Source: Prevotellaceae bacterium
GTDB taxonomy: Bacteria; Bacteroidota; Bacteroidia; Bacteroidales; UBA932
Length of the DNA stretch: 44,464 bases
Reading direction: 5' to 3'
Assembly: GCA_031258415.1 (NCBI GenBank)
Contig: JAIRMW010000136.1
Coordinates: 1 to 44,464, forward strand
Shown: piece by piece, positions 23,049 to 42,966 of the stretch
How the letters are laid out: each line of letters begins with the position of its first letter
Position numbering within the stretch: the stretch's first letter is position 1
Notes under the pieces: generated by a model
Seen by the model: the letters and a program-made list of their open reading frames with translations, nothing else
The model's database searches: none
Told to the model about the DNA's origin: nothing
Position numbers and translations under genes: made by a program

Positions 23049-23111
23049 TTCAATGACACGTGTCATCATTTCAATGACACGTGTCATTACTTCGATGACA
23101 CGTGTCATTCG
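23049..23111. repeat. 3 x 21-bp tandem repeat, each with perfect 14-bp palindrome ATGACACGTGTCAT
   Basis: ttcaatgacacgtgtcatcat / ttcaatgacacgtgtcattac / ttcgatgacacgtgtcattcg, followed by a degenerate acaaatgtcttatgtc. Confidence 0.9.
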
Positions 23112-25414: not shown

Positions 25415-25456
25415 AAATGTGGACGTACACAAATTAAAATGTGGACGTACACAAAT
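25415..25456. promoter_or_regulatory. Two identical 20-bp direct repeats containing LacI-type operator-like half-palindrome TGTGGACGTACACA
   Basis: AAATGTGGACGTACACAAAT at 25415-25434 and at 25437-25456, a 22-bp period. The TGT..CG..ACA architecture is typical of LacI-family operators. A TTTCTTTG box-like element lies just upstream at 25400-25407. Confidence 0.5.
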
Positions 25457-28455: not shown

Positions 28456-28541
<86 letters not shown>

Positions 28542-34412: not shown

Positions 34413-36995
34413 ATGACACAGACCCTAAAAACACGCCTGCCGGCGCTTATCTTCCTGCTGGCGGCGATCGGTTTTGCCGACGTCGTCGGCCGGGACGCCG
34501 TCGGCTACCGGACGCTCGACCCGAGCTGCCCGGTAGAGTGGGAGGGCGACCGGATCGTCTTTCAGGGACGCAGGATCGACCTCTCGCCCCATGCCTTTTT
34601 CGTCGACGGGCGCCTGACGACCGACGAAATAGCCGATCGCCCCTTTGTCTTCAATTCCCTGAACGACGCCCTCGCCCAAGTCGTCGACGGATCGACCGAC
34701 CAGCCGATGACGGTCTATATCGCCCCGTACGTCTACTGGATCGACGACCCCGACGACCCGGCTGTCCGCATCGCCGCCGACGGGCAGGACGCGCCCGTCG
34801 GCTTGACGGTGCGCTGCAACCACCTTACCCTCTACGGGCTTACCGACAACCCGCAGCATGTCGTCCTCGCCTGCAACCGGGGGCAAACATTGGGGGCGCA
34901 AGGCAATTTTACCATGTTCTCGTTCATCGGCGACGACCTGCGGGTCGAAAACCTGACGATGGGCAACTATTGCAACGTCGATTTGGAATATCCCCTGCAA
35001 CCGTCGCTGAGCCGTGCCAAACGATCGCCTACCATCGTACAGGCGCAGCTTGCCTTCTGCCGCGGCGACCGGATTCTCGCTCGCCGGGTGCATTTTATCA
35101 GCCGTCTGAACACCAAGCCCCTGTTAGGCGGCAAAAGGACGCTGTTCGACCGCTGTCATATCGAATGTACCGACGACGCCCTGTGCCCTACCGGCGTATA
35201 CCTGCACAGCTCGTTTACCTTTTTCAGTTCAAAACCCTTTGCCCGAACGGCCGGCACCGGCGCCCTGTTTCTGGACTGCGATTTCGATGTGCGAACGCGC
35301 CACAGGCAGTACCTCGTTAAGGGCGAAGGACGGGTGACGCTGGTCGATGCCCGCTTTCATCATCCGTCCGATTCGCTGTGGATCGGCTGGACGCAAGACC
35401 CGCCCGACGACCTGCGAAACTATCAGTACAACGTAACCCTCAACGGCCAACCGGTAGCGATCAACCGCGACAAACCCGCCCTCGCCGTCGATATGACCGA
35501 CAAACCCCTGCTGGCGGCCTACCGCTTCGAAGACGGGGGCGACGTAGTCTATAACACCTACAACCTGCTCCGCGGCGACGACGAATGGGATCCAATGGGC
35601 GTCAAGACGCGCGTCGAGGCGGCAGAGCGGCGCGCCGGCGTCCGGCTAACGGCGATTCCCGTATCCCTGCAACTGTCGCCGACGCGGGCGTTCGTCGAGG
35701 CGGGCGCCATAGACCTTACGCTCGACGCCGCCTCGTTCCGTTTCGGTAACTACCGCACCGCCTCCGCGCCCTTGACATGGCGGGTATCGCAGGGCGACAC
35801 GTCGCTGGTGGCGCTACAGGCCGACGGCGAGCAGTGCCGGGTTTTGAGCCTGAACGGGCGCGAGGAACCGGAGAACGTAGTGATTACCGTCGCCGACCCG
35901 TCGGGACTGGAAGCGGCGGCGGTGATAGCCGTCGCGCCGGCGCGGTTGCCGCCGCCCGTCTTTACCGCCCCGCCGGCCATCGTCGCCGGAAAAGGATCGC
36001 TGCGGGTCGCTTATACGCTGGCGCTGGACGGACGCCGCGACGAGTCGCTCATTACATGGTACCGTTGCCGCGAGGCCTCCGGCGCCGACGCCATCCCCGT
36101 AGCCGTAACGCGGCGGGGGCGACCGGAATACGTCTATGAACTCTCGCAGGCCGACGCCGGCTATTACATCATGGCCACCGTAGCGCCCAAGCACCTCCGT
36201 TCCCCGTCAGGGAAAATAGAAAAAGCCATCACCGAGGCGCCCATCGTCCCCGAACAAACCGTCTGGCGCAACCTGTATACGGATTTCCATAGCTTTCCGG
36301 TTGACTTCCAGCCTGAAAAACGCCCCGGCTTCTGGACCGTCGACGCCTATAAACCGCTTGAACTCGACGACGAAAACTGGACGCCCGTACCCGAAAACGC
36401 ATGGGAATACGGCCCCGAACTGAACGGCGCCAAAGGCATGGGGCTGGTGCAAACCGGACGGGGCGCGCGCCTGCTATACACCCCCGTCGAACGACCCTAT
36501 GGCGATATGAGCCTCTCCCTACAGGTCGACCCCTGCAAGCAGGCCGGGCAGGGCTTCTCGATCGCCGGAAAGGGGCAGTATATGGACATTTACATCAAAT
36601 TCGACCCCCTCACCCTGACGGGATATGCCCTGCGCATTATCCGCACCCTCAAATTCGACCGGGCGGTAGACTTTTACTTAGTGAAATATGAAAACGGACG
36701 GACGACGCCTCTCTGCGAGCCGGTATCGACCACCTGCTACCGCACCGGATGCACAATCACCCTGCGGATAGAAGGGGATCGCTTCACGGCGCATGCCGAA
36801 AGTCCGACCATCCCGGACGGCGACCCGATCCCCGGCCTTGTGCCGGTCGTCGACCTCTATGCCCTCATTACGCCCAATCCCTTTGGCGGTACGGGCATCC
36901 AGTATGCCGCCTCCGCGCGGGGAACCTCGAATACCTTTGAGTCGGGAAGCGCCATGCTCCACCGCCTCGACGTGCGTTGGAGCAGTGAACAATGA
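34413..36995 (+). CDS. Secreted right-handed beta-helix protein, pectinesterase (CE8)-like / pectin-lyase-fold N-domain plus C-terminal beta-rich domains
   Basis: Signal peptide MTQTLKTRLPALIFLLAAIGFA. Alternative starts are 34353 and 34401. The segment TIVQAQLAFCRGDRILARRVHF resembles the CE8 QAVAL..GDR..F..C block, and repeated hydrophobic beta-helix turns are present. This is inference only. Confidence 0.5.
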   Translation: MTQTLKTRLPALIFLLAAIGFADVVGRDAVGYRTLDPSCPVEWEGDRIVFQGRRIDLSPHAFFVDGRLTTDEIADRPFVFNSLNDALAQVVDGSTDQPMTVYIAPYVYWIDDPDDPAVRIAADGQDAPVGLTVRCNHLTLYGLTDNPQHVVLACNRGQTLGAQGNFTMFSFIGDDLRVENLTMGNYCNVDLEYPLQPSLSRAKRSPTIVQAQLAFCRGDRILARRVHFISRLNTKPLLGGKRTLFDRCHIECTDDALCPTGVYLHSSFTFFSSKPFARTAGTGALFLDCDFDVRTRHRQYLVKGEGRVTLVDARFHHPSDSLWIGWTQDPPDDLRNYQYNVTLNGQPVAINRDKPALAVDMTDKPLLAAYRFEDGGDVVYNTYNLLRGDDEWDPMGVKTRVEAAERRAGVRLTAIPVSLQLSPTRAFVEAGAIDLTLDAASFRFGNYRTASAPLTWRVSQGDTSLVALQADGEQCRVLSLNGREEPENVVITVADPSGLEAAAVIAVAPARLPPPVFTAPPAIVAGKGSLRVAYTLALDGRRDESLITWYRCREASGADAIPVAVTRRGRPEYVYELSQADAGYYIMATVAPKHLRSPSGKIEKAITEAPIVPEQTVWRNLYTDFHSFPVDFQPEKRPGFWTVDAYKPLELDDENWTPVPENAWEYGPELNGAKGMGLVQTGRGARLLYTPVERPYGDMSLSLQVDPCKQAGQGFSIAGKGQYMDIYIKFDPLTLTGYALRIIRTLKFDRAVDFYLVKYENGRTTPLCEPVSTTCYRTGCTITLRIEGDRFTAHAESPTIPDGDPIPGLVPVVDLYALITPNPFGGTGIQYAASARGTSNTFESGSAMLHRLDVRWSSEQ

Positions 36996-37089
36996 ATAAT
37001 GTAGTTAATGGAGTTAGAGTAGTTAATGGAGTTAATGAATAATGAACAACGAACAACGAACAATGAATACGACGAATAATGAATACAAT
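36988..37089. repeat. Composite 7/9-bp tandem array (AAYAAYG heptamers + KAGTTARWG nonamers) beginning in last codons of upstream CDS
   Basis: aacaatg aataatg tagttaatg gagttagag tagttaatg gagttaatg aataatg aacaacg aacaacg aacaatg aatacgacg aataatg aatacaat. The CDS stop TGA (36993-36995) lies inside the array. Confidence 0.85.
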
Positions 37090-37099
37090 AAATACGTAA

Positions 37100-37138
37100 C
37101 CACTTCACGTAAATACGCGCCGGCGTTACGTGAAGTGG
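37100..37138. other. Long hairpin: perfect 13-bp stem CCACTTCACGTAA / TTACGTGAAGTGG
   Basis: The 13-nt loop contains a further CGC/GCG 3-bp stem. The hairpin sits between the 7/9-mer array and the 21-mer array. Confidence 0.8.
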
Positions 37139-37284
37139 CTACGCATTCGCGCGAATTAGCCACGCATTCGCGCGAATTTGCTCCGCATTCGCGCGAATTT
37201 GCTCCGTATTCGCGCGAATTTGCCACGCATTCGCGCGAATTTGCCACGCATTCGCGCGAATTTGCCGCGCATTCGCGCGAAGCC
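37138..37284. repeat. 7 x 21-bp perfectly phased tandem repeat, each unit with 12-bp palindrome ATTCGCGCGAAT
   Basis: gctacgcattcgcgcgaatta / gccacgcattcgcgcgaattt / gctccgcattcgcgcgaattt / gctccgtattcgcgcgaattt / gccacgcattcgcgcgaattt (x2) / gccgcgcattcgcgcgaagcc. Total 147 bp. Confidence 0.95.
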
Positions 37285-37364
37285 AAACAAAAAAGACGCG
37301 CCGCCCGTACGGCGGCCGCCATATTCAATACCTACTTATTCGATAACATCAAAACGAAATCAAA

Positions 37365-38018
37365 ATGTCAGGACGCGCTACATTAAACAGGTCTAACGCC
37401 TCATTTATCGCGCTGGCCGAGGCCCTCCATTCGCAATCGCATCTTCATGCAGACGACTGGAGACTCGACGCCGCGCAACTCGCTACCTTCGACGCCCTGC
37501 TCGACGTCGCCAAAACAGCCTACGACGCCAATAGCAACCGGAGTACGAAAAACGCCGTTTCGACCGCCAACAAAAACGCGGCGTTCGGCGACCTGCGAGC
37601 CTTTCTGAGTCTGTATATCAACACCCTCGTAGGCAACAGCCGCGTGCCCGACGAAGCCCTCAACTACATGGGGCTACGCTCGAGGCATTCGCGCCGGTAC
37701 GCCCCGCTGCCGAGACCCACCGACCCCATCGTCCTCTCCGTCAAGCGGCGGCACGACGAAATGACCGTCCACGCCTCCCGCCCCGAGCATGGACACCCCA
37801 CCGACGGCGTCGGCGTAAAAAAACACTACGGATTTATGCTCCGCTACCGAATCGAAGGCGCCGAACGCGAGGAAATCCTCATCTCTACCCGACTCCGGCA
37901 CACCCTGTTCTTCGACCGCGCCGACGAAGGGAAAAAAATTACCCTCGCCGCCGCATGGGTCAATCCTCGCCTCGAAACAGGCCCTTGGAGCGAAGACATC
38001 AACGAAATCATCGGGTAA
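37365..38018 (+). CDS. Hypothetical cytoplasmic protein (no signal peptide): helical N-half, beta-rich FN3/Ig-like C-half
   Basis: 217-aa ORF, 27 nt upstream of the next CDS, which implies an operon. The C-terminal ...ITLAAAWVNPRLETGPWSEDINEII resembles the last strands of FN3-type domains. I recognise no family. Confidence 0.6.
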   Translation: MSGRATLNRSNASFIALAEALHSQSHLHADDWRLDAAQLATFDALLDVAKTAYDANSNRSTKNAVSTANKNAAFGDLRAFLSLYINTLVGNSRVPDEALNYMGLRSRHSRRYAPLPRPTDPIVLSVKRRHDEMTVHASRPEHGHPTDGVGVKKHYGFMLRYRIEGAEREEILISTRLRHTLFFDRADEGKKITLAAAWVNPRLETGPWSEDINEIIG

Positions 38019-38045
38019 AAAAAACCTTTTTTTAGCACCACTGCA

Positions 38046-41000
38046 ATGAAAAAATACGCAACAAACCGACTGCAACGACTCGCGATCCTCGCAGCAGGGT
38101 GGGGGATAGCCCTGCTCTTCGGGGCGTTCGCCGCGTCGCCGCCGCCCCGCTCGCTACTGATTACGCCCGAGCAAACACTGGTCTATCATACGTATGAAAA
38201 TGGCGACCGAATCCCTGATTTTTCCTTCTGCGGCTATGCTCAATCGGAGCGACCCATCCCCGACGTACCCGGAAAAGTCAGGGTGCGCTACACGGAAGGC
38301 GACGCCACCGAACGCATCCAGCGCGCCATCGACTATGTAAGCGCCCTGCCGGTGGGCGCCGACGGATTTCGCGGCGCCGTCGTGCTGGAAAAAGGGCGAT
38401 ACCGGCTGGCGGGCAGCCTGCGGATTAGCGCCTCCGGCGTCGTATTGCGGGGTAGCGGATACGCCCCCGACGAAACCGTACTGGTCGGCGTCGGCCCGGA
38501 TCGGGCGACGCTGATCCGAATCGCCGGCCTCAATGATCGCACCGTGATCGACAGCATTCCCGTCGTCGGGCGCTACGTCCCGCTGAACGCCACGCATATC
38601 CCCCTGCCGGAAATGCATTCGCTCGCGGCGGGCGATAAAATCATCCTCACCCGCCCCTCCACCGCCGAATGGCTGGCCGCGATAGGCGCGGACAGGATAG
38701 GCTACTACGTCGACTACCAACTGACCCACTGGCTGCCGGGCGATTTCGACATCCGCTGCGAGCGCACCGTCGTAGCGGCCATGCCGGGCGCCATCGAAAT
38801 CGACGTCCCCCTGCCCCAAGCGCTCGACGAGCGCTATGGCGGCGGATGGGTCGGCCGCTACCGCTGGGAAGGGCGCATCAGGCAGGTCGCCGTAGAAAAT
38901 CTGCGTTGCCTATCGGAGGCCGACACCTCCGTAAATCCCAAAGACGAAAACCATCGCTGGATGGCGATTACGGTCGAAAATGCCGAAGACGGATGGGTGC
39001 GTCGCGTCGTCGGCGAACACTTCGTCAGCAGCGTCGTCGCCCTCTGGGAAAGCGCCCGCCGCTTTACCGTCGAAGACTGCAAATGCCTCGCCCCGATTGG
39101 CGAAATGGGCGGATACCGCCGCTATGCCTTTCAGACAACAGGGCAGCAAACACTCTTCCAGCGCTGCTATGCCGAATATGGCTACCACGACTTCTCCGTC
39201 GGATTTACCGCCGCAGGCCCCAACGCCTTTGTCCAGTGCTACGCCCGTCGCCCCTACAATTTCAGCGGAACGCTTGGCGGATGGTCGTGCGCCACCCTGT
39301 TCGACCGGACGACCGTCGACGGGGCGCCCCTGAAAATCACCTATCGCGACGTCGACGGACAGGGCGGCGGGTGGAGCGGCGTAAACGCCCTCTGCTGGGA
39401 ATGCCGAGTGCCGCAACTCCACCTCGCCACGCCCCCCGATGCCCACAATTGGGCTTTCGGAACATGGGGACAGGGCTATGGCGACGGCTCGCACGAAATG
39501 CCCCGCACCTTTCTAAAACCCGAAAGTTTTTATTACGCCCAATGGGAAGCCCGCACCGGAAAAAAATCGGAAGAAACGGCTAAAATCCTATCCCTGAACC
39601 GCCGCCCGCTCGACAAGACCGACCCGCCCTATACCGCCCTGATGAGTCGCCGTTCGGAAATGCCCGAACTCACGATGGACGCATGGATCGACACAATCGC
39701 CGCCCGCTACCCCCTCGCCGTCGCCGACGACGGCCTGCCCGAGCTCGACGACGTAGCCCCGCGCCGCGAAGAAAAGCCCCCCTTGCCTGCCGCCGCGCAG
39801 CCCATCGGCATAGCGAACGGACTGCTCCTGAGGAATGGAATACCCCTGTCGGGAAATGTGCTCCGCACGGCGCTCTGGAGAGGCAATACGCGCCCAAGCG
39901 GTCTACAGGCCGCCGCCCCGCACCTTACCCGATTTGTCCCCGGACGCGAAGGAACAGGATATACCGACAACCTCGACTCCGTCGCCGCCGGCATGATCCG
40001 GCAAAACATCGTCGCGCTAAACCATTTTCCATCCTTATGGTACGAACGACGCCGCGACGACCATGGCCGCTCGCGCCGCGCCGACGCCGACGTTTGGGCG
40101 CCCTTCTACGAACAGCCCTTTAGCCGCAGCGGTGAAGGCGAAGCCTTCGACCGCCTGAGCCAGTACGACCTCCGCCGATTTAACCCTTGGTACTGGATGC
40201 GATTAACACAATTTGCCGACCTCGCCGACCGGCAAGGACTACTCCTGATACAGGATCACTACTTGCAGCATAATATTATCGAAGAAGGAGCGCACTGGGC
40301 GGACTACCCTTGGCGTTCGGCCAATAATCGCAACGCATTGGGATTTCCCGAAAACACCTACTACGCCGGCGACAAACGAGTGTTTATGGCCGACCAGTTT
40401 TATGATACCACCGTCGAACGACGCGCAGCCCTCCATCGCCAATATATCAGAAAACACTTGGACGAACTGGGCGACCACCCGAACGTCATTCACCACTTGG
40501 GCGCCGAATATACCGGCCCACTGCATTTTGTCCGCTTCTGGCTGGACGTGATCCGCCAATGGGAACGAGAGACCGGTCGCCACGTAAAAGTGATGCTCTC
40601 GGCAACCAAAGACGTTACCGACGCCCTGCTGGCCGATGCGCCCTACGCCGCCGGGGTCGATATTATAGAAATTCGTCAGTGGCACTACCGCGCCGACGGA
40701 TCCCTCTACGCCCCCGAAGGAGGTGTAAGCCTCGCCGAACGCCAGTATGCCCGCATTATCGACGCCGGCGACGACAGCCCCGACGCCATATACCGCGCAG
40801 TCACCGAATACCGCCGCGCATTTCCCGATAAGGCGGTCGTCTACAGTTTCAGAAACACTCCCGATAAAGCATGGCCGGCGTATGTCGCAGGCGCGTCCCT
40901 GTGCAATATCCCCGCCGTCGCCGCCCCCCGCTTCTATAGCGACGCCCGGCAAATGACGCCCCTCGAACACCTCGCCCGGCAGGGCGCCCACTGGGGAATG

Positions 41001-41259: not shown

Positions 41260-42882
41260 ATGAAGCATACACGGAAAAATAGTTGGCTAACGAGCGTTCT
41301 TATCCTCGCGATGATCGACGCCGGTTCCCTTTCGGGAATGCCCGATGCGCCGTCGCCGCCGGCAAAGGAACAGGTATTGACGGCAATGAAGCAGGCCTCT
41401 CGCTTTATGGTAGAGAAAGTCGGCTATCGGGGCGCCTATGTATGGGCATACCTCCCCGACCTCTCGCGTCGCTGGGGCGAACTCGAAGCCTATCCCACGA
41501 TGGGATGGGTACAAAACCCCGGCACGCCCTCGATGGGACATCTCTTTCTCGACGCCTACCATGCGACCGGCGATGAATACTACTACGACGCGGCCTGCGA
41601 GACGGCGAGGGCGTTAATTTGGGCGCAACTCCCCTGCGGAGGATGGAACTATATGTTCGATTACGCCGGCGAGCATTCGCTCAAACGCTGGTATGCGACC
41701 ATTGGAAAGCAGGCTTGGCGGATGGAAGAATTTCATCACTACTACGACAACGCCACCTTCGACGACGGAGGCACCGTGGCGGCGGCCGAATTGCTGCTCC
41801 GAATTTATGTGGAAAAAAACGACCCCGCCTTTCGCCCGCCCTTAGAAAAAACAATCCGCCTTATCGTAGAGAGCCAGTACCCTTCCGGCGGCTGGCCGCA
41901 ACGCTATCCGCCGCGCTACGACCCCACGACCCTCGGCAACCCCGACTATCCCTCCTGCATCACCTTAAACGACGACGTGAGCATGCGCAACATCGACTTC
42001 CTCCTGCAATGCTACCAGAGCTTGGGATGGAAAAACGTCCGCGAGCCGATTACCCGGGCGATGAATATCCTGATTGCCCTACAGCACGGAGCCCCCTGTG
42101 CCGGATGGGCCGATCAGTATACCGTCGACGAACTGAAGCCCGCCCCGGCGCGCTCCTACGAACCCTGCGCCATTAACACAGGCACGACGGTTGAAATGAT
42201 TTATTTGATGATGGAATACTACCGCCTCACCGGCGAAACCAAATTCCTGTCGGGGCTCCCGGCCGCGATCGACTTCCTCGCCTCCCTCCAATTGCCCGAC
42301 GACGAAGTGAAGCGTGCCGGGAAAACCCTCCGGCGCCCGGACGACATCCTCATTCCCCGCTACATCGACCCGAAAACAGGACTGCCGCAGTACATCCATC
42401 GAAAAGGGAGCAACGTCGCCAACGGATGCTATTATTTCGACCAAGACATCCGCCATACCGTATCGCACATAGGCTCGACCGCCGCCGTCAATATCGGAGA
42501 ACTGCGCCGCGCCCTCGCCGAATGCCGAAAAACGCCCAACGACTCGCTCCTGAAGCGCTCGCCCCTCTTCAACGGGCGCCCCCTTCGGAAATACTATTCA
42601 GCCCCCTTCCGCTCGACGACCGCCAACCTGCCGGACGCTGCGACAATCATCGACCGCCTCGACCCTGCCGGCTACTGGCCGACGCCGCTCCCGATGATCT
42701 CCGCGCCCTATAAAGCCTGTCCGCCGCTCCCGCCGAGCGAAGACGACACCTATGCGCAAACACGCGCCGGCGACGAGTACGACACCTCGACCCGTCCGCC
42801 CGAAACGCCCGTCGACGGCGTCCATACCGCCGTCTACATCGCCAATATGATGACCCTGATCCACTATTTGAATAATGAATAA
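41260..42882 (+). CDS. Putative polysaccharide lyase, PL10 / PelA-Pel15E (Pec_lyase) like alpha/alpha-toroid protein
   Basis: Signal peptide. The blocks NATFDDGGTVAAAELLLRIY, QYPSGGWPQRYP and ITLNDDVSMRNIDFLL resemble conserved PL10 pectate-lyase blocks, recalled from memory and not aligned. Confidence 0.55.
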   Translation: MKHTRKNSWLTSVLILAMIDAGSLSGMPDAPSPPAKEQVLTAMKQASRFMVEKVGYRGAYVWAYLPDLSRRWGELEAYPTMGWVQNPGTPSMGHLFLDAYHATGDEYYYDAACETARALIWAQLPCGGWNYMFDYAGEHSLKRWYATIGKQAWRMEEFHHYYDNATFDDGGTVAAAELLLRIYVEKNDPAFRPPLEKTIRLIVESQYPSGGWPQRYPPRYDPTTLGNPDYPSCITLNDDVSMRNIDFLLQCYQSLGWKNVREPITRAMNILIALQHGAPCAGWADQYTVDELKPAPARSYEPCAINTGTTVEMIYLMMEYYRLTGETKFLSGLPAAIDFLASLQLPDDEVKRAGKTLRRPDDILIPRYIDPKTGLPQYIHRKGSNVANGCYYFDQDIRHTVSHIGSTAAVNIGELRRALAECRKTPNDSLLKRSPLFNGRPLRKYYSAPFRSTTANLPDAATIIDRLDPAGYWPTPLPMISAPYKACPPLPPSEDDTYAQTRAGDEYDTSTRPPETPVDGVHTAVYIANMMTLIHYLNNE

Positions 42883-42966
42883 TGAAGAATGTAGTTAGAG
42901 TAGTTAGAGTAGTTAATGTAGTTAGAGTAGTTAATGTAGTTAATGAATAATGACCAATGAATAATA
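42871..42966. repeat. Composite 7/9-bp tandem array (AATAATG + TAGTTARWG x6), same family as 36988-37089, starting in last codons of upstream CDS
   Basis: aataatg aataatg aagaatg tagttagag tagttagag tagttaatg tagttagag tagttaatg tagttaatg aataatg accaatg aataata. The CDS stop TAA (42880-42882) lies inside the array. Confidence 0.9.

Follow-up and report, generated by a model that had tools for sequence, protein, structure and literature searches.

The only published relative that we found of the repeats considered here is BrickBuilt, a MITE (miniature inverted-repeat transposable element) or minisatellite of Porphyromonas gingivalis that is made of 23-nt bricks framed by a leader and a tail, is present in 19 copies, possesses promoter activity and forms long stem-loops (Klein et al., 2015; PMC4596501). 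The same study reported PgRS (MITE464) with 41-nt repeats, and the published BrickBuilt element matched only Porphyromonas (PMC4596501). Here we analyze a repeat array on contig JAIRMW010000136.1 (44,464 nucleotides, in its entirety referred to as the window) of the Prevotellaceae bacterium metagenome-assembled genome (MAG) GCA_031258415.1, in which 21-bp units built around the palindrome ATTCGCGCGAAT precede the gene for a 217-amino-acid protein. With BrickBuilt and PgRS, this type of array has in common the occurrence in Bacteroidales, the spacer-less tandem arrangement of dyad repeats that measure about 21-23 nt (alternatively 41-42 nt), the intergenic position, many dispersed copies and a variable number of units; as in BrickBuilt, the bricks are enclosed by a conserved leader and tail that often adjoin terminator-like hairpins. 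In contrast to BrickBuilt, which is a single sequence family with IS5-like terminal inverted repeats and without a linked gene, the arrays described here comprise dozens of unrelated unit sequences that share only period and design, and a subset of them is tightly linked to a gene. Neither IS5-like terminal inverted repeats (GAGACCTTTGCA, up to two mismatches) in positions 36900-38100 nor an inverted repeat between the module ends was found. The array is a member of a Bacteroidales class of quantized dyad minisatellites, and it is the upstream half of a conserved module that consists of a leader, a 21-bp dyad array, a tail, and a gene for a helical protein with an FN3 domain.

The central observation of our analysis is that in the genus of the source MAG (1.84 Mb in 166 contigs, 68% complete, 54% GC) almost every gene of this family is closely preceded by an array whose spelling differs from that of the other arrays. 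Iterative searches recovered about 19 paralogs in the MAG; all 13 of those with enough upstream DNA possess a 21-bp array 45-220 nt upstream of the gene, each with a different unit, and the remaining paralogs abut contig ends. No other protein family was enriched beside the arrays of this MAG. When modules from nine genomes of the genus were pooled with metagenome loci (88 modules), an array was present upstream of 72 of the 78 family genes with at least 200 nt of upstream DNA, the periods being 21 bp (62 arrays) and 42 bp (18 arrays), and the distance from the end of the array to the ATG had a median of 64 nt (interquartile range 51-87 nt). The family is represented by 10-42 copies in each of the eight other genomes of the genus, by none in 10 other genera of the same taxonomic family, and, among 400 evenly sampled Bacteroidales genomes, by 1-3 copies in only eight others. 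A 21- or 42-bp array was present at five to six of eight loci from these distant Bacteroidales, and also at three metagenome loci that encode proteins with 50-54% identity to that of the window. Since the genes downstream of the paralogs are mutually unrelated (DUF6298, an RND pump, LRR proteins, NAD kinase, phosphoglycerate mutase, and others), the module is not a feature of polysaccharide utilization loci (PULs). A preliminary description of the array had placed it at the head of a PUL enzyme operon; it accompanies the 217-amino-acid gene instead, and a PUL-specific element is ruled out by the unrelated genes beside the paralogs.

The gene-linked arrays belong to a much larger set. Tandem Repeats Finder (TRF) reported 817 rows in the whole MAG, amounting to 3.7% of its bases, with 21 bp as the most common period (168 rows), followed by 7 (heptamers, 107 rows), 9, 42, 18, and 63 bp. 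A genome that represents a different genus of this taxonomic family, sampled over 400 kb, has tandem repeats as well, without a dominance of period 21. After merging, 113 arrays of the MAG had a period of 20-23 bp and at least 3.5 copies, and their unit sequences were mostly unrelated. Perfect dyads with arms of at least 5 nt were found in 69 of these 113 arrays, compared to about 14 expected from shuffled units, and the arms varied less than the spacers (5.7% vs. 10.1%; arms below spacers in 26 of 32 arrays). Broken dyad pairs, read on the sense strand of the gene, were G.T in 47 and A.C in 38 cases (p = 0.39); hence, the dyads show the same degree of symmetry on either DNA strand, in contrast to a hairpin that functions in one RNA strand. 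By a crude gene map, contig ends account for 54 of the arrays, tandem gaps for 27, convergent gaps for 17 and divergent gaps for 15, so that the class as a whole is not confined to promoters.

We tentatively read the array as a phased platform for binding to double-stranded DNA that is coupled to the gene and possibly read by the gene's own product. This proposal draws on the linkage within the MAG, the pooled modules and the distant loci, on the frequency of dyads, on the conservation of their arms and the symmetry of the strands, on a period characteristic of the gene family, and on the divergence of the protein's N-terminus described below; moreover, the -7 promoter box, where it is exact and downstream, lies between array and ATG (five loci). 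About seven identical dyads spaced by exactly two helical turns would allow a dimeric DNA-binding factor to occupy neighboring sites along a single helical face, and such a factor, bound directly upstream of the gene's promoter, could set expression with the array serving either as an operator or as an activator platform. The most plausible reader would be the product of the adjacent gene, which might recognize the units via its hypervariable N-terminal 14 residues, so that each paralog would have a private code. Protein binding, the identity of the reader, and an effect on transcription are what we infer from these patterns. Of the operator- or iteron-array layout suggested in the preliminary description, the operator-like part, with identical dyads on one helical face, stays the best reading and is strengthened by the fixed upstream position, the lower variation of arms than of spacers, and the similar numbers of G.T and A.C broken pairs; the iteron part was dropped, there being no Rep or Par protein adjacent. 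Phased direct repeats that each contain an inverted repeat are found as well in sopC of the F plasmid, in iterons and in partition arrays, where the dimeric product of a neighboring gene binds them cooperatively. The locus studied here differs from those systems by the lack of Rep, ParA, or ParB, by its location in a chromosomal PUL, by the presence of about 19 or more modules per genome, and by its helical and FN3-containing protein; a plasmid iteron or partition centromere was rejected on this ground, the neighbors being SusC/SusD, an 880-amino-acid protein, the 217-amino-acid FN3 protein, DUF6298, and a pectate-lyase-like protein.

The same period and placement could be explained without any sequence-specific reader. 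Since 21 bp correspond to two helical turns, any bend of the unit adds up in phase, and a curved or stiff segment might position nucleoid proteins or RNA polymerase whatever its spelling. A conserved period combined with free sequence, the position of the array just upstream of the promoter, and the A/T tracts that by inspection are found in many units (e.g., GAATTTG in the window) fit such structural DNA. It leaves unexplained, however, both the enrichment of dyads and the selective conservation of their arms, and periods of 22-23 bp are common in the genome as well; we therefore consider this explanation quite improbable.

An element that functions at the level of RNA, either as a transcribed leader or as a separate RNA, was weighed against the distribution of promoter boxes and the strand properties of the repeats; such an RNA could be a structured 5' leader, a target of an RNase, or the type III toxin-antitoxin-like partner of the downstream protein. 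Among 39 modules, the exact -7 box of Bacteroidetes (TAnnTTTG) was located between array and ATG in five (at -42 to -60), upstream of the array in 12, and was absent from 24; one array possesses it in every unit. The boxes upstream of arrays indicate that some arrays may be transcribed, e.g., that of module C136, where a -33 box is found at the right spacing as well, and in module L024 a canonical terminator (hairpin plus T8) separates array and gene. In the predicted fold of the window array as RNA, the units pair with one another in long duplexes (-71.5 kcal/mol, z = -4.4). In toxIN, cptIN, and tenpIN loci, too, tandem direct repeats stand immediately upstream of a small gene and are separated from it by a hairpin, and the length of the repeat is specific to the family and its sequence to the locus. 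Against an RNA-level role stand the missing strand bias, the many dyads that are perfect palindromes and hence have no loop, the five boxes located between array and ATG, and the hairpin in the tail of the window array, whose T-run is on the minus strand only. Furthermore, the protein is modeled as a three-helix bundle with an FN3 domain and is not an endoRNase of the ToxN/AbiQ/CptN type, it had no PADLOC match, and the units are DNA palindromes. Searches of Rfam 15 gave no match, with best scores of 15-21 bits compared to gathering scores of 50-100. Taken together, an RNA-level element appears improbable, and the earlier idea that paired units form an RNase III or stability element found no support in view of the missing Rfam match and G.U bias.

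The preferred DNA-binding platform has to accommodate a rapid replacement of the unit sequence. An ortholog of the window gene (locus L008, 78% identical) shares tail and promoter with the window and yet has an array of ATTACTACGTAGTAAT units. Three paralogs from one related genome (L019, L028, and L093), whose proteins are 93-96% identical, have the cores GTGAACATGTTCAC, GTAAGTCCACTTAC, and GTAAGCATGCTTAC, respectively; their genes are 93.6% identical in DNA sequence, with 31 synonymous vs. 8-9 non-synonymous codon differences, and share a common 50-nt promoter, and the homology between L019 and L028 begins exactly at the end of the array. Across the modules, the similarity of the units rises only weakly with protein identity (Spearman 0.2). 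Given this weak correlation and the different cores beside 78-96% identical proteins, we rejected the simple form of a cognate operator whose specificity tracks overall protein similarity. In related units, the outer arms and the spacer are typically kept while the inner core differs with its symmetry retained, a pattern for which selection and quasipalindrome template switching are both possible causes. The latter is an established mutational mechanism that generates dyad-symmetric double changes without selection. Of 108 dyad changes between related units, 82 were still complementary, a count that is confounded and no proof of selection because the partners had been picked as palindromes and because template switching can achieve the same. 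Free drift had been named at the outset as the mark of neutral slippage DNA; drift was indeed found for the unit sequence, which is replaced between genes that are 78-96% identical, whereas the presence and the period of the array are conserved. L019 and L028 (genome G007) also possess, about 300 nt downstream of their genes, different heptamer microsatellites (GAATTAA/G, CAATTAA, and GACTTAT vs. GGAGTTAAG and CCCTTTAC) between conserved GCTGGCGCGCCAGC palindromes; these copies are 94% identical, and the heptamers turn over faster than their flanks.

This turnover, much faster than that of the flanking DNA, is what one would expect from a BrickBuilt-like hairpin minisatellite that is self-propagating or neutral, whose stem-loops are amplified in place and homogenized by slippage or template switching, whose promoter or terminator effects are incidental, and for which the gene family is a hot spot. 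Such an element would account for the number of arrays in a partial genome of 1.84 Mb, for their settings in tandem, divergent, and convergent gaps and at contig ends, and for the BrickBuilt-like layout, in which leader and tail enclose the bricks, long stem-loops are predicted, and terminator-like hairpins lie in the flanks; the dyad-symmetric double changes would be explicable by template switching. Two further copies of the window unit point in the same direction. On contig C97, 18.9 units of the ATTCGCGCGAAT repeat, flanked by a leader and a tail homologous to those of the window, precede a decayed copy of the 217-amino-acid gene, from which the promoter with codons 1-124 and codons ~151-183 have been deleted, i.e., the twin has grown to 19 units beside a decayed gene. 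The window unit including its spacer variant TTGCTCCGT was also found, by a scan of a genome collection, in the MAG Prevotellaceae bacterium isolate Nc350_bin165, where 4.5 units precede, at a distance of about 80 nt, an unrelated gene that we read by eye as Kbl-like (2-amino-3-ketobutyrate CoA ligase). A minisatellite does not readily explain why presence, period, and position of the array, and not its sequence, are kept upstream of the family across Bacteroidales genera and families, and an occupancy of 92% is hard to reach by neutral insertion. Nor does it explain why variation in the arms is 2-fold to 20-fold below that in the spacers (0% vs. 11% in the window array and 0.9% vs. 19.8% in that of C97), why the period differs with the linked gene family within one genome, or why the module has no IS5-type or other inverted ends. 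We regard a minisatellite of this kind as the main rival of the binding platform, if rather unlikely.

Of the 217-amino-acid protein, an AlphaFold2 model based on a multiple sequence alignment (predicted local distance difference test, pLDDT, 88) contains a three-helix N-terminal domain (residues 11-90) and a β-sandwich (residues ~120-217), which in Foldseek searches matched FN3 domains only (E ~1e-5); the model built from the single sequence was useless (pLDDT 45). By eye, the protein has no N-terminal hydrophobic signal segment. The protein and 30 relatives had no match in Pfam, NCBIfam, PHROGs, or PADLOC, and a profile search of the PDB with the family returned nothing below E = 0.09. The family comprises 5,890 clusters at 50% identity (E ≤ 1e-3). 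In close pairs of proteins with different arrays, the first 14 residues are the fastest-diverging part: nine of them differ between the window protein (contig C16) and that of L008, compared to 19% of the residues elsewhere, and four of the eight differences between L019 and L028 fall within this segment. The N-terminus is kept in pairs with similar arrays (L086/L090 and L005/L011).

Several observations weigh against a DNA-binding platform read by the adjacent gene's product. The protein has no recognizable DNA-binding fold or family by PDB profile search, AlphaFold2, Foldseek, or Pfam. Different cores stand upstream of genes for proteins that are 93-96% (L019/L028/L093) or 78% (C16/L008) identical, so that a private code would rest on very few residues, and the trend in the N-terminus is only a lead because the pairs are few and non-independent. 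The 19-unit twin on C97 keeps its perfect palindromes beside a dead gene, arrays of the same design, among them the 17 in apparently convergent intergenic gaps, lie away from family genes too, and ATTCGCGCGAAT does not occur as an isolated single site anywhere in the genome. Finally, of the 39 modules inspected for the exact -7 box, 24 lack it and 12 have it upstream of the array, so that some arrays may be transcribed.

A second gene family of the same MAG follows the same rule. It comprises seven DUF6261 (PF19775) genes, at least four of which are preceded, at a distance of 50-300 nt, by tandem arrays with a period of 42 bp. DUF6261 is likewise an uncharacterized family with an upstream array, and differs in its unrelated protein and its 42-bp period: the 217-amino-acid family is no relative of it, given an hhalign probability of 2.7% against the seven DUF6261 proteins of the MAG and the lack of a Pfam match. 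One genome thus harbors two unrelated array-linked gene families, one with 21/42-bp and one with 42-bp arrays, and these characteristic periods are in our view the strongest hint of a physical interaction between protein and array. It is conceivable, although we consider it unlikely, that the helical and FN3-containing proteins constitute a new class of sequence-specific readers of DNA arrays, in which each paralog reads its own 21-bp-phased array via a few N-terminal residues, so that a genome would hold dozens of orthogonal, fast re-coding pairs, with DUF6261 (42 bp) as a parallel invention.

The features of the module in the window are collected in Table 1. TRF reported a single array in this region (37141-37281; period 21, 6.7 copies, 93% matches, no indels, score 233). 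The in-phase repetition of a 21-bp palindromic unit described before was thereby reproduced, except that the palindrome is not perfect in every unit: ATTCGCGCGAAT is exact in six (starting at 37145, 37166, 37187, 37208, 37229, and 37250), and the seventh copy, at 37271, is truncated to ATTCGCGCGAAg. By shuffling, 0.5 matches to ATTCGCGCGAAT are expected in the window by chance, and no shuffle reached eight. The core of the palindrome, which had been called Z-prone, is with (CG)3 a short one for the formation of Z-DNA. By TRF, the array is indeed the largest 21-bp array of the window; genome-wide, that of C97 is bigger. A hairpin at 37100-37138 (CCACTTCACGTAA / TTACGTGAAGTGG; 13-bp stem, 13-nt loop) proved real and stable as RNA (-29.6 kcal/mol, z = -5.9). 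It is not an element separate from the array, as had been thought, but part of the decayed 5' flank of the repeat: the leader is 64-75% identical to the array in the 21-bp register (repeat family D1), so that the hairpin consists of decayed units, and it is degenerate in the C97 copy. The small GC hairpin noted earlier in front of the ATG exists as well (~37298-37319); it is weak on the plus strand (-14.3 kcal/mol, z = -2.0), and in a pattern scan it was terminator-like on the minus strand only (37299-37316). The distance of about 80 bp given for the gap between the array and the start codon agrees with the 81-84 nt that we found. The promoter stretch of the window contains no exact -7 box, and a sigma-70 promoter scan, which is ill-suited to Bacteroidetes, returned no sites.

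Table 1. Coordinates of the module in the window and of DUF6261-linked arrays in the same MAG (G000).
Position	Strand	Feature	Remarks
36997..37094	.	Composite 9-mer (GTAGTTAAT/GGAGTTAGA) and 7-mer (TAATGAA/CAACGAA) repeats	Directly after the stop codon of the 880-amino-acid gene; found by TRF
37078..37138	+	Leader: decayed in-phase repeat units forming a 13-bp-stem hairpin	Homology to the C97 copy starts at 37078 (blastn)
37139..37284	.	Array of seven 21-bp units, the last truncated	12-bp palindrome ATTCGCGCGAAT plus 9-bp variable spacer (TTGCCACGC and variants)
37285..37323	.	Tail: A-rich run (CCAAACAAAAAAG) and GC hairpin	Kept in the C97 copy and at ortholog locus L008
37324..37364	+	AT-rich promoter and 5'-untranslated stretch with CTTATTCGATA	Conserved in the 78%-identical ortholog
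37365..38018	+	Gene for the 217-amino-acid protein, unannotated family	Three-helix N-terminal domain and FN3 C-terminal domain
38019..38036	+	Short post-gene segment common to the C97 and C31 copies	Rightmost part of the duplicated module
C7:3581-3929	gene orientation	DUF6261 locus	
C126:6490-6817	gene orientation	DUF6261 locus	
C157:17765-18117	gene orientation	DUF6261 locus	

Homology between the window and C97 in blastn comprises positions 37078-37316, 37738-37815, and 37913-38036, which defines leader, array, tail, and gene as the duplicated unit. Leader (from 37078) and tail (to 37316) are common to the window contig and C97, and the tail is found at L008 too, as shown within this small subfamily. 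ATTCGCGCGAAT also occurs on contig C109, where a two-unit remnant of the array is left, and two adjacent window units had no match in a scan of metagenome contigs. The idea that all arrays without a neighboring family gene are relics of dead family genes was rejected, as C97 and C86 provide the only two clear remnants. At ~5480-5560 of C86, the final 15 codons (GEKGPWSEIQSAIIP*) of a family gene directly adjoin one perfect palindrome of 28 bp (CGCGTTCCGGCGAGCTCGCCGGAACGCG), a junction that looks like the scar of a deletion between array and gene. The composite repeats in front of the leader (TRF rows 36997-37037, 37033-37085, and 37053-37094) lie outside the duplicated module except for their last ~17 nt. 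Composites of 9-mers (GTAGTTAGA/GTAGTTAAT) and 7-mers (TAATGAA) are present both there and at 42869-42965, after the stop codons of two different genes, and are rich in stop codons in all plus frames.

As 21 nt equal seven codons, the array might also encode a heptad repeat, and a 114-amino-acid open reading frame (ORF; 37042-37386) does read ATHSREF seven times. The frame is open through the array on both strands, and gene callers place small ORFs on such arrays in metagenomes. By our own estimate, however, ~70% of the frames through a random 21-nt repeat are open by chance; the unit variants of the window are mostly non-synonymous (T/P/A, H/Y, F/L), periods of 20, 22, 23, and 41 bp are frequent as well, and palindromes read alike on both strands. 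Coding heptads are hardly credible in the light of these data; we rejected them and judged the 114-amino-acid ORF to be spurious. A CRISPR array was dismissed because the units abut head to tail and the 9-bp "spacers" are near-identical variants. Repetitive extragenic palindromic (REP) sequences, with their BIME and REPIN arrangements and the associated RAYT transposase, resemble the present arrays as dispersed extragenic palindromic units that are sometimes clustered and have a dedicated protein gene. They differ from the strict head-to-tail arrangement, the fixed period, and the many unrelated sequences seen here, and a REP/RAYT system was rejected since the linked protein is without a Pfam or NCBIfam domain and is no Y1 HUH transposase.

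The window is a polysaccharide-utilization region of a Bacteroidota genome, in which genes for a LacI-family regulator, an altronate-dehydratase-like protein, SusC, SusD, and the 880-amino-acid protein (without a family match) precede the array and the 217-amino-acid gene, followed by genes for DUF6298, a pectate-lyase-like protein, and a second SusC. We found no support for the array as an operator of the LacI-family protein, whose gene has its own duplicated dyad about 230 nt upstream. This exact 22-bp duplication (AAATGTGGACGTACACAAATTA; 25415-25456), with a TGTG..ACGT..CACA dyad, is a more conventional candidate operator for that regulator. At 23049-23109, three 21-bp units with the 14-bp palindrome ATGACACGTGTCAT represent the genome-wide class without an adjacent gene of the 217-amino-acid family. 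Other repeats of the window are about 30 in-phase heptamers with the consensus CGATGCT (1919-2131) and an uninterrupted (AC)41 dinucleotide run (28458-28540) in the interval that separates the altronate-dehydratase-like gene from the first SusC gene. Elsewhere in the MAG, contigs C11 (1-467), C12 (1-326), and C44 (22-315) start with 41-42-bp tandem arrays (TGACGGTCGAACAGTGCGCTGTTTGGTTCCCCACAACCTTG), which are not CRISPR arrays because all units are alike; in another MAG, ~37-nt repeats (GTCTCAATGCCGCTTTCGCAGCTATTATCAATCCGAT) with unique stretches between them and a period of ~75 nt (L061:3169-4897) probably do form a CRISPR array. The public scaffold has stretches of N within the array at L008 (1424-1666), which is longer than 500 bp. 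Short reads do not suffice to assemble arrays of this class.

If the arrays are selfish minisatellites, they would matter as sequences that break short-read assemblies, as the 54 of 113 arrays at contig ends illustrate, that attract spurious gene calls, and that mark a fast-evolving compartment beside promoters. If gene and array work together, they would represent an undescribed regulatory or recognition system of the Bacteroidales with a very simple layout, in which a small protein is paired with an array of identical sites. Given a natural diversity that at 50% identity amounts to thousands of family members, each accompanied by a different site, such a system could supply orthogonal protein-DNA pairs, and it could explain why intergenic repeats of the Bacteroidales are quantized at 21-23 and 41-42 bp.

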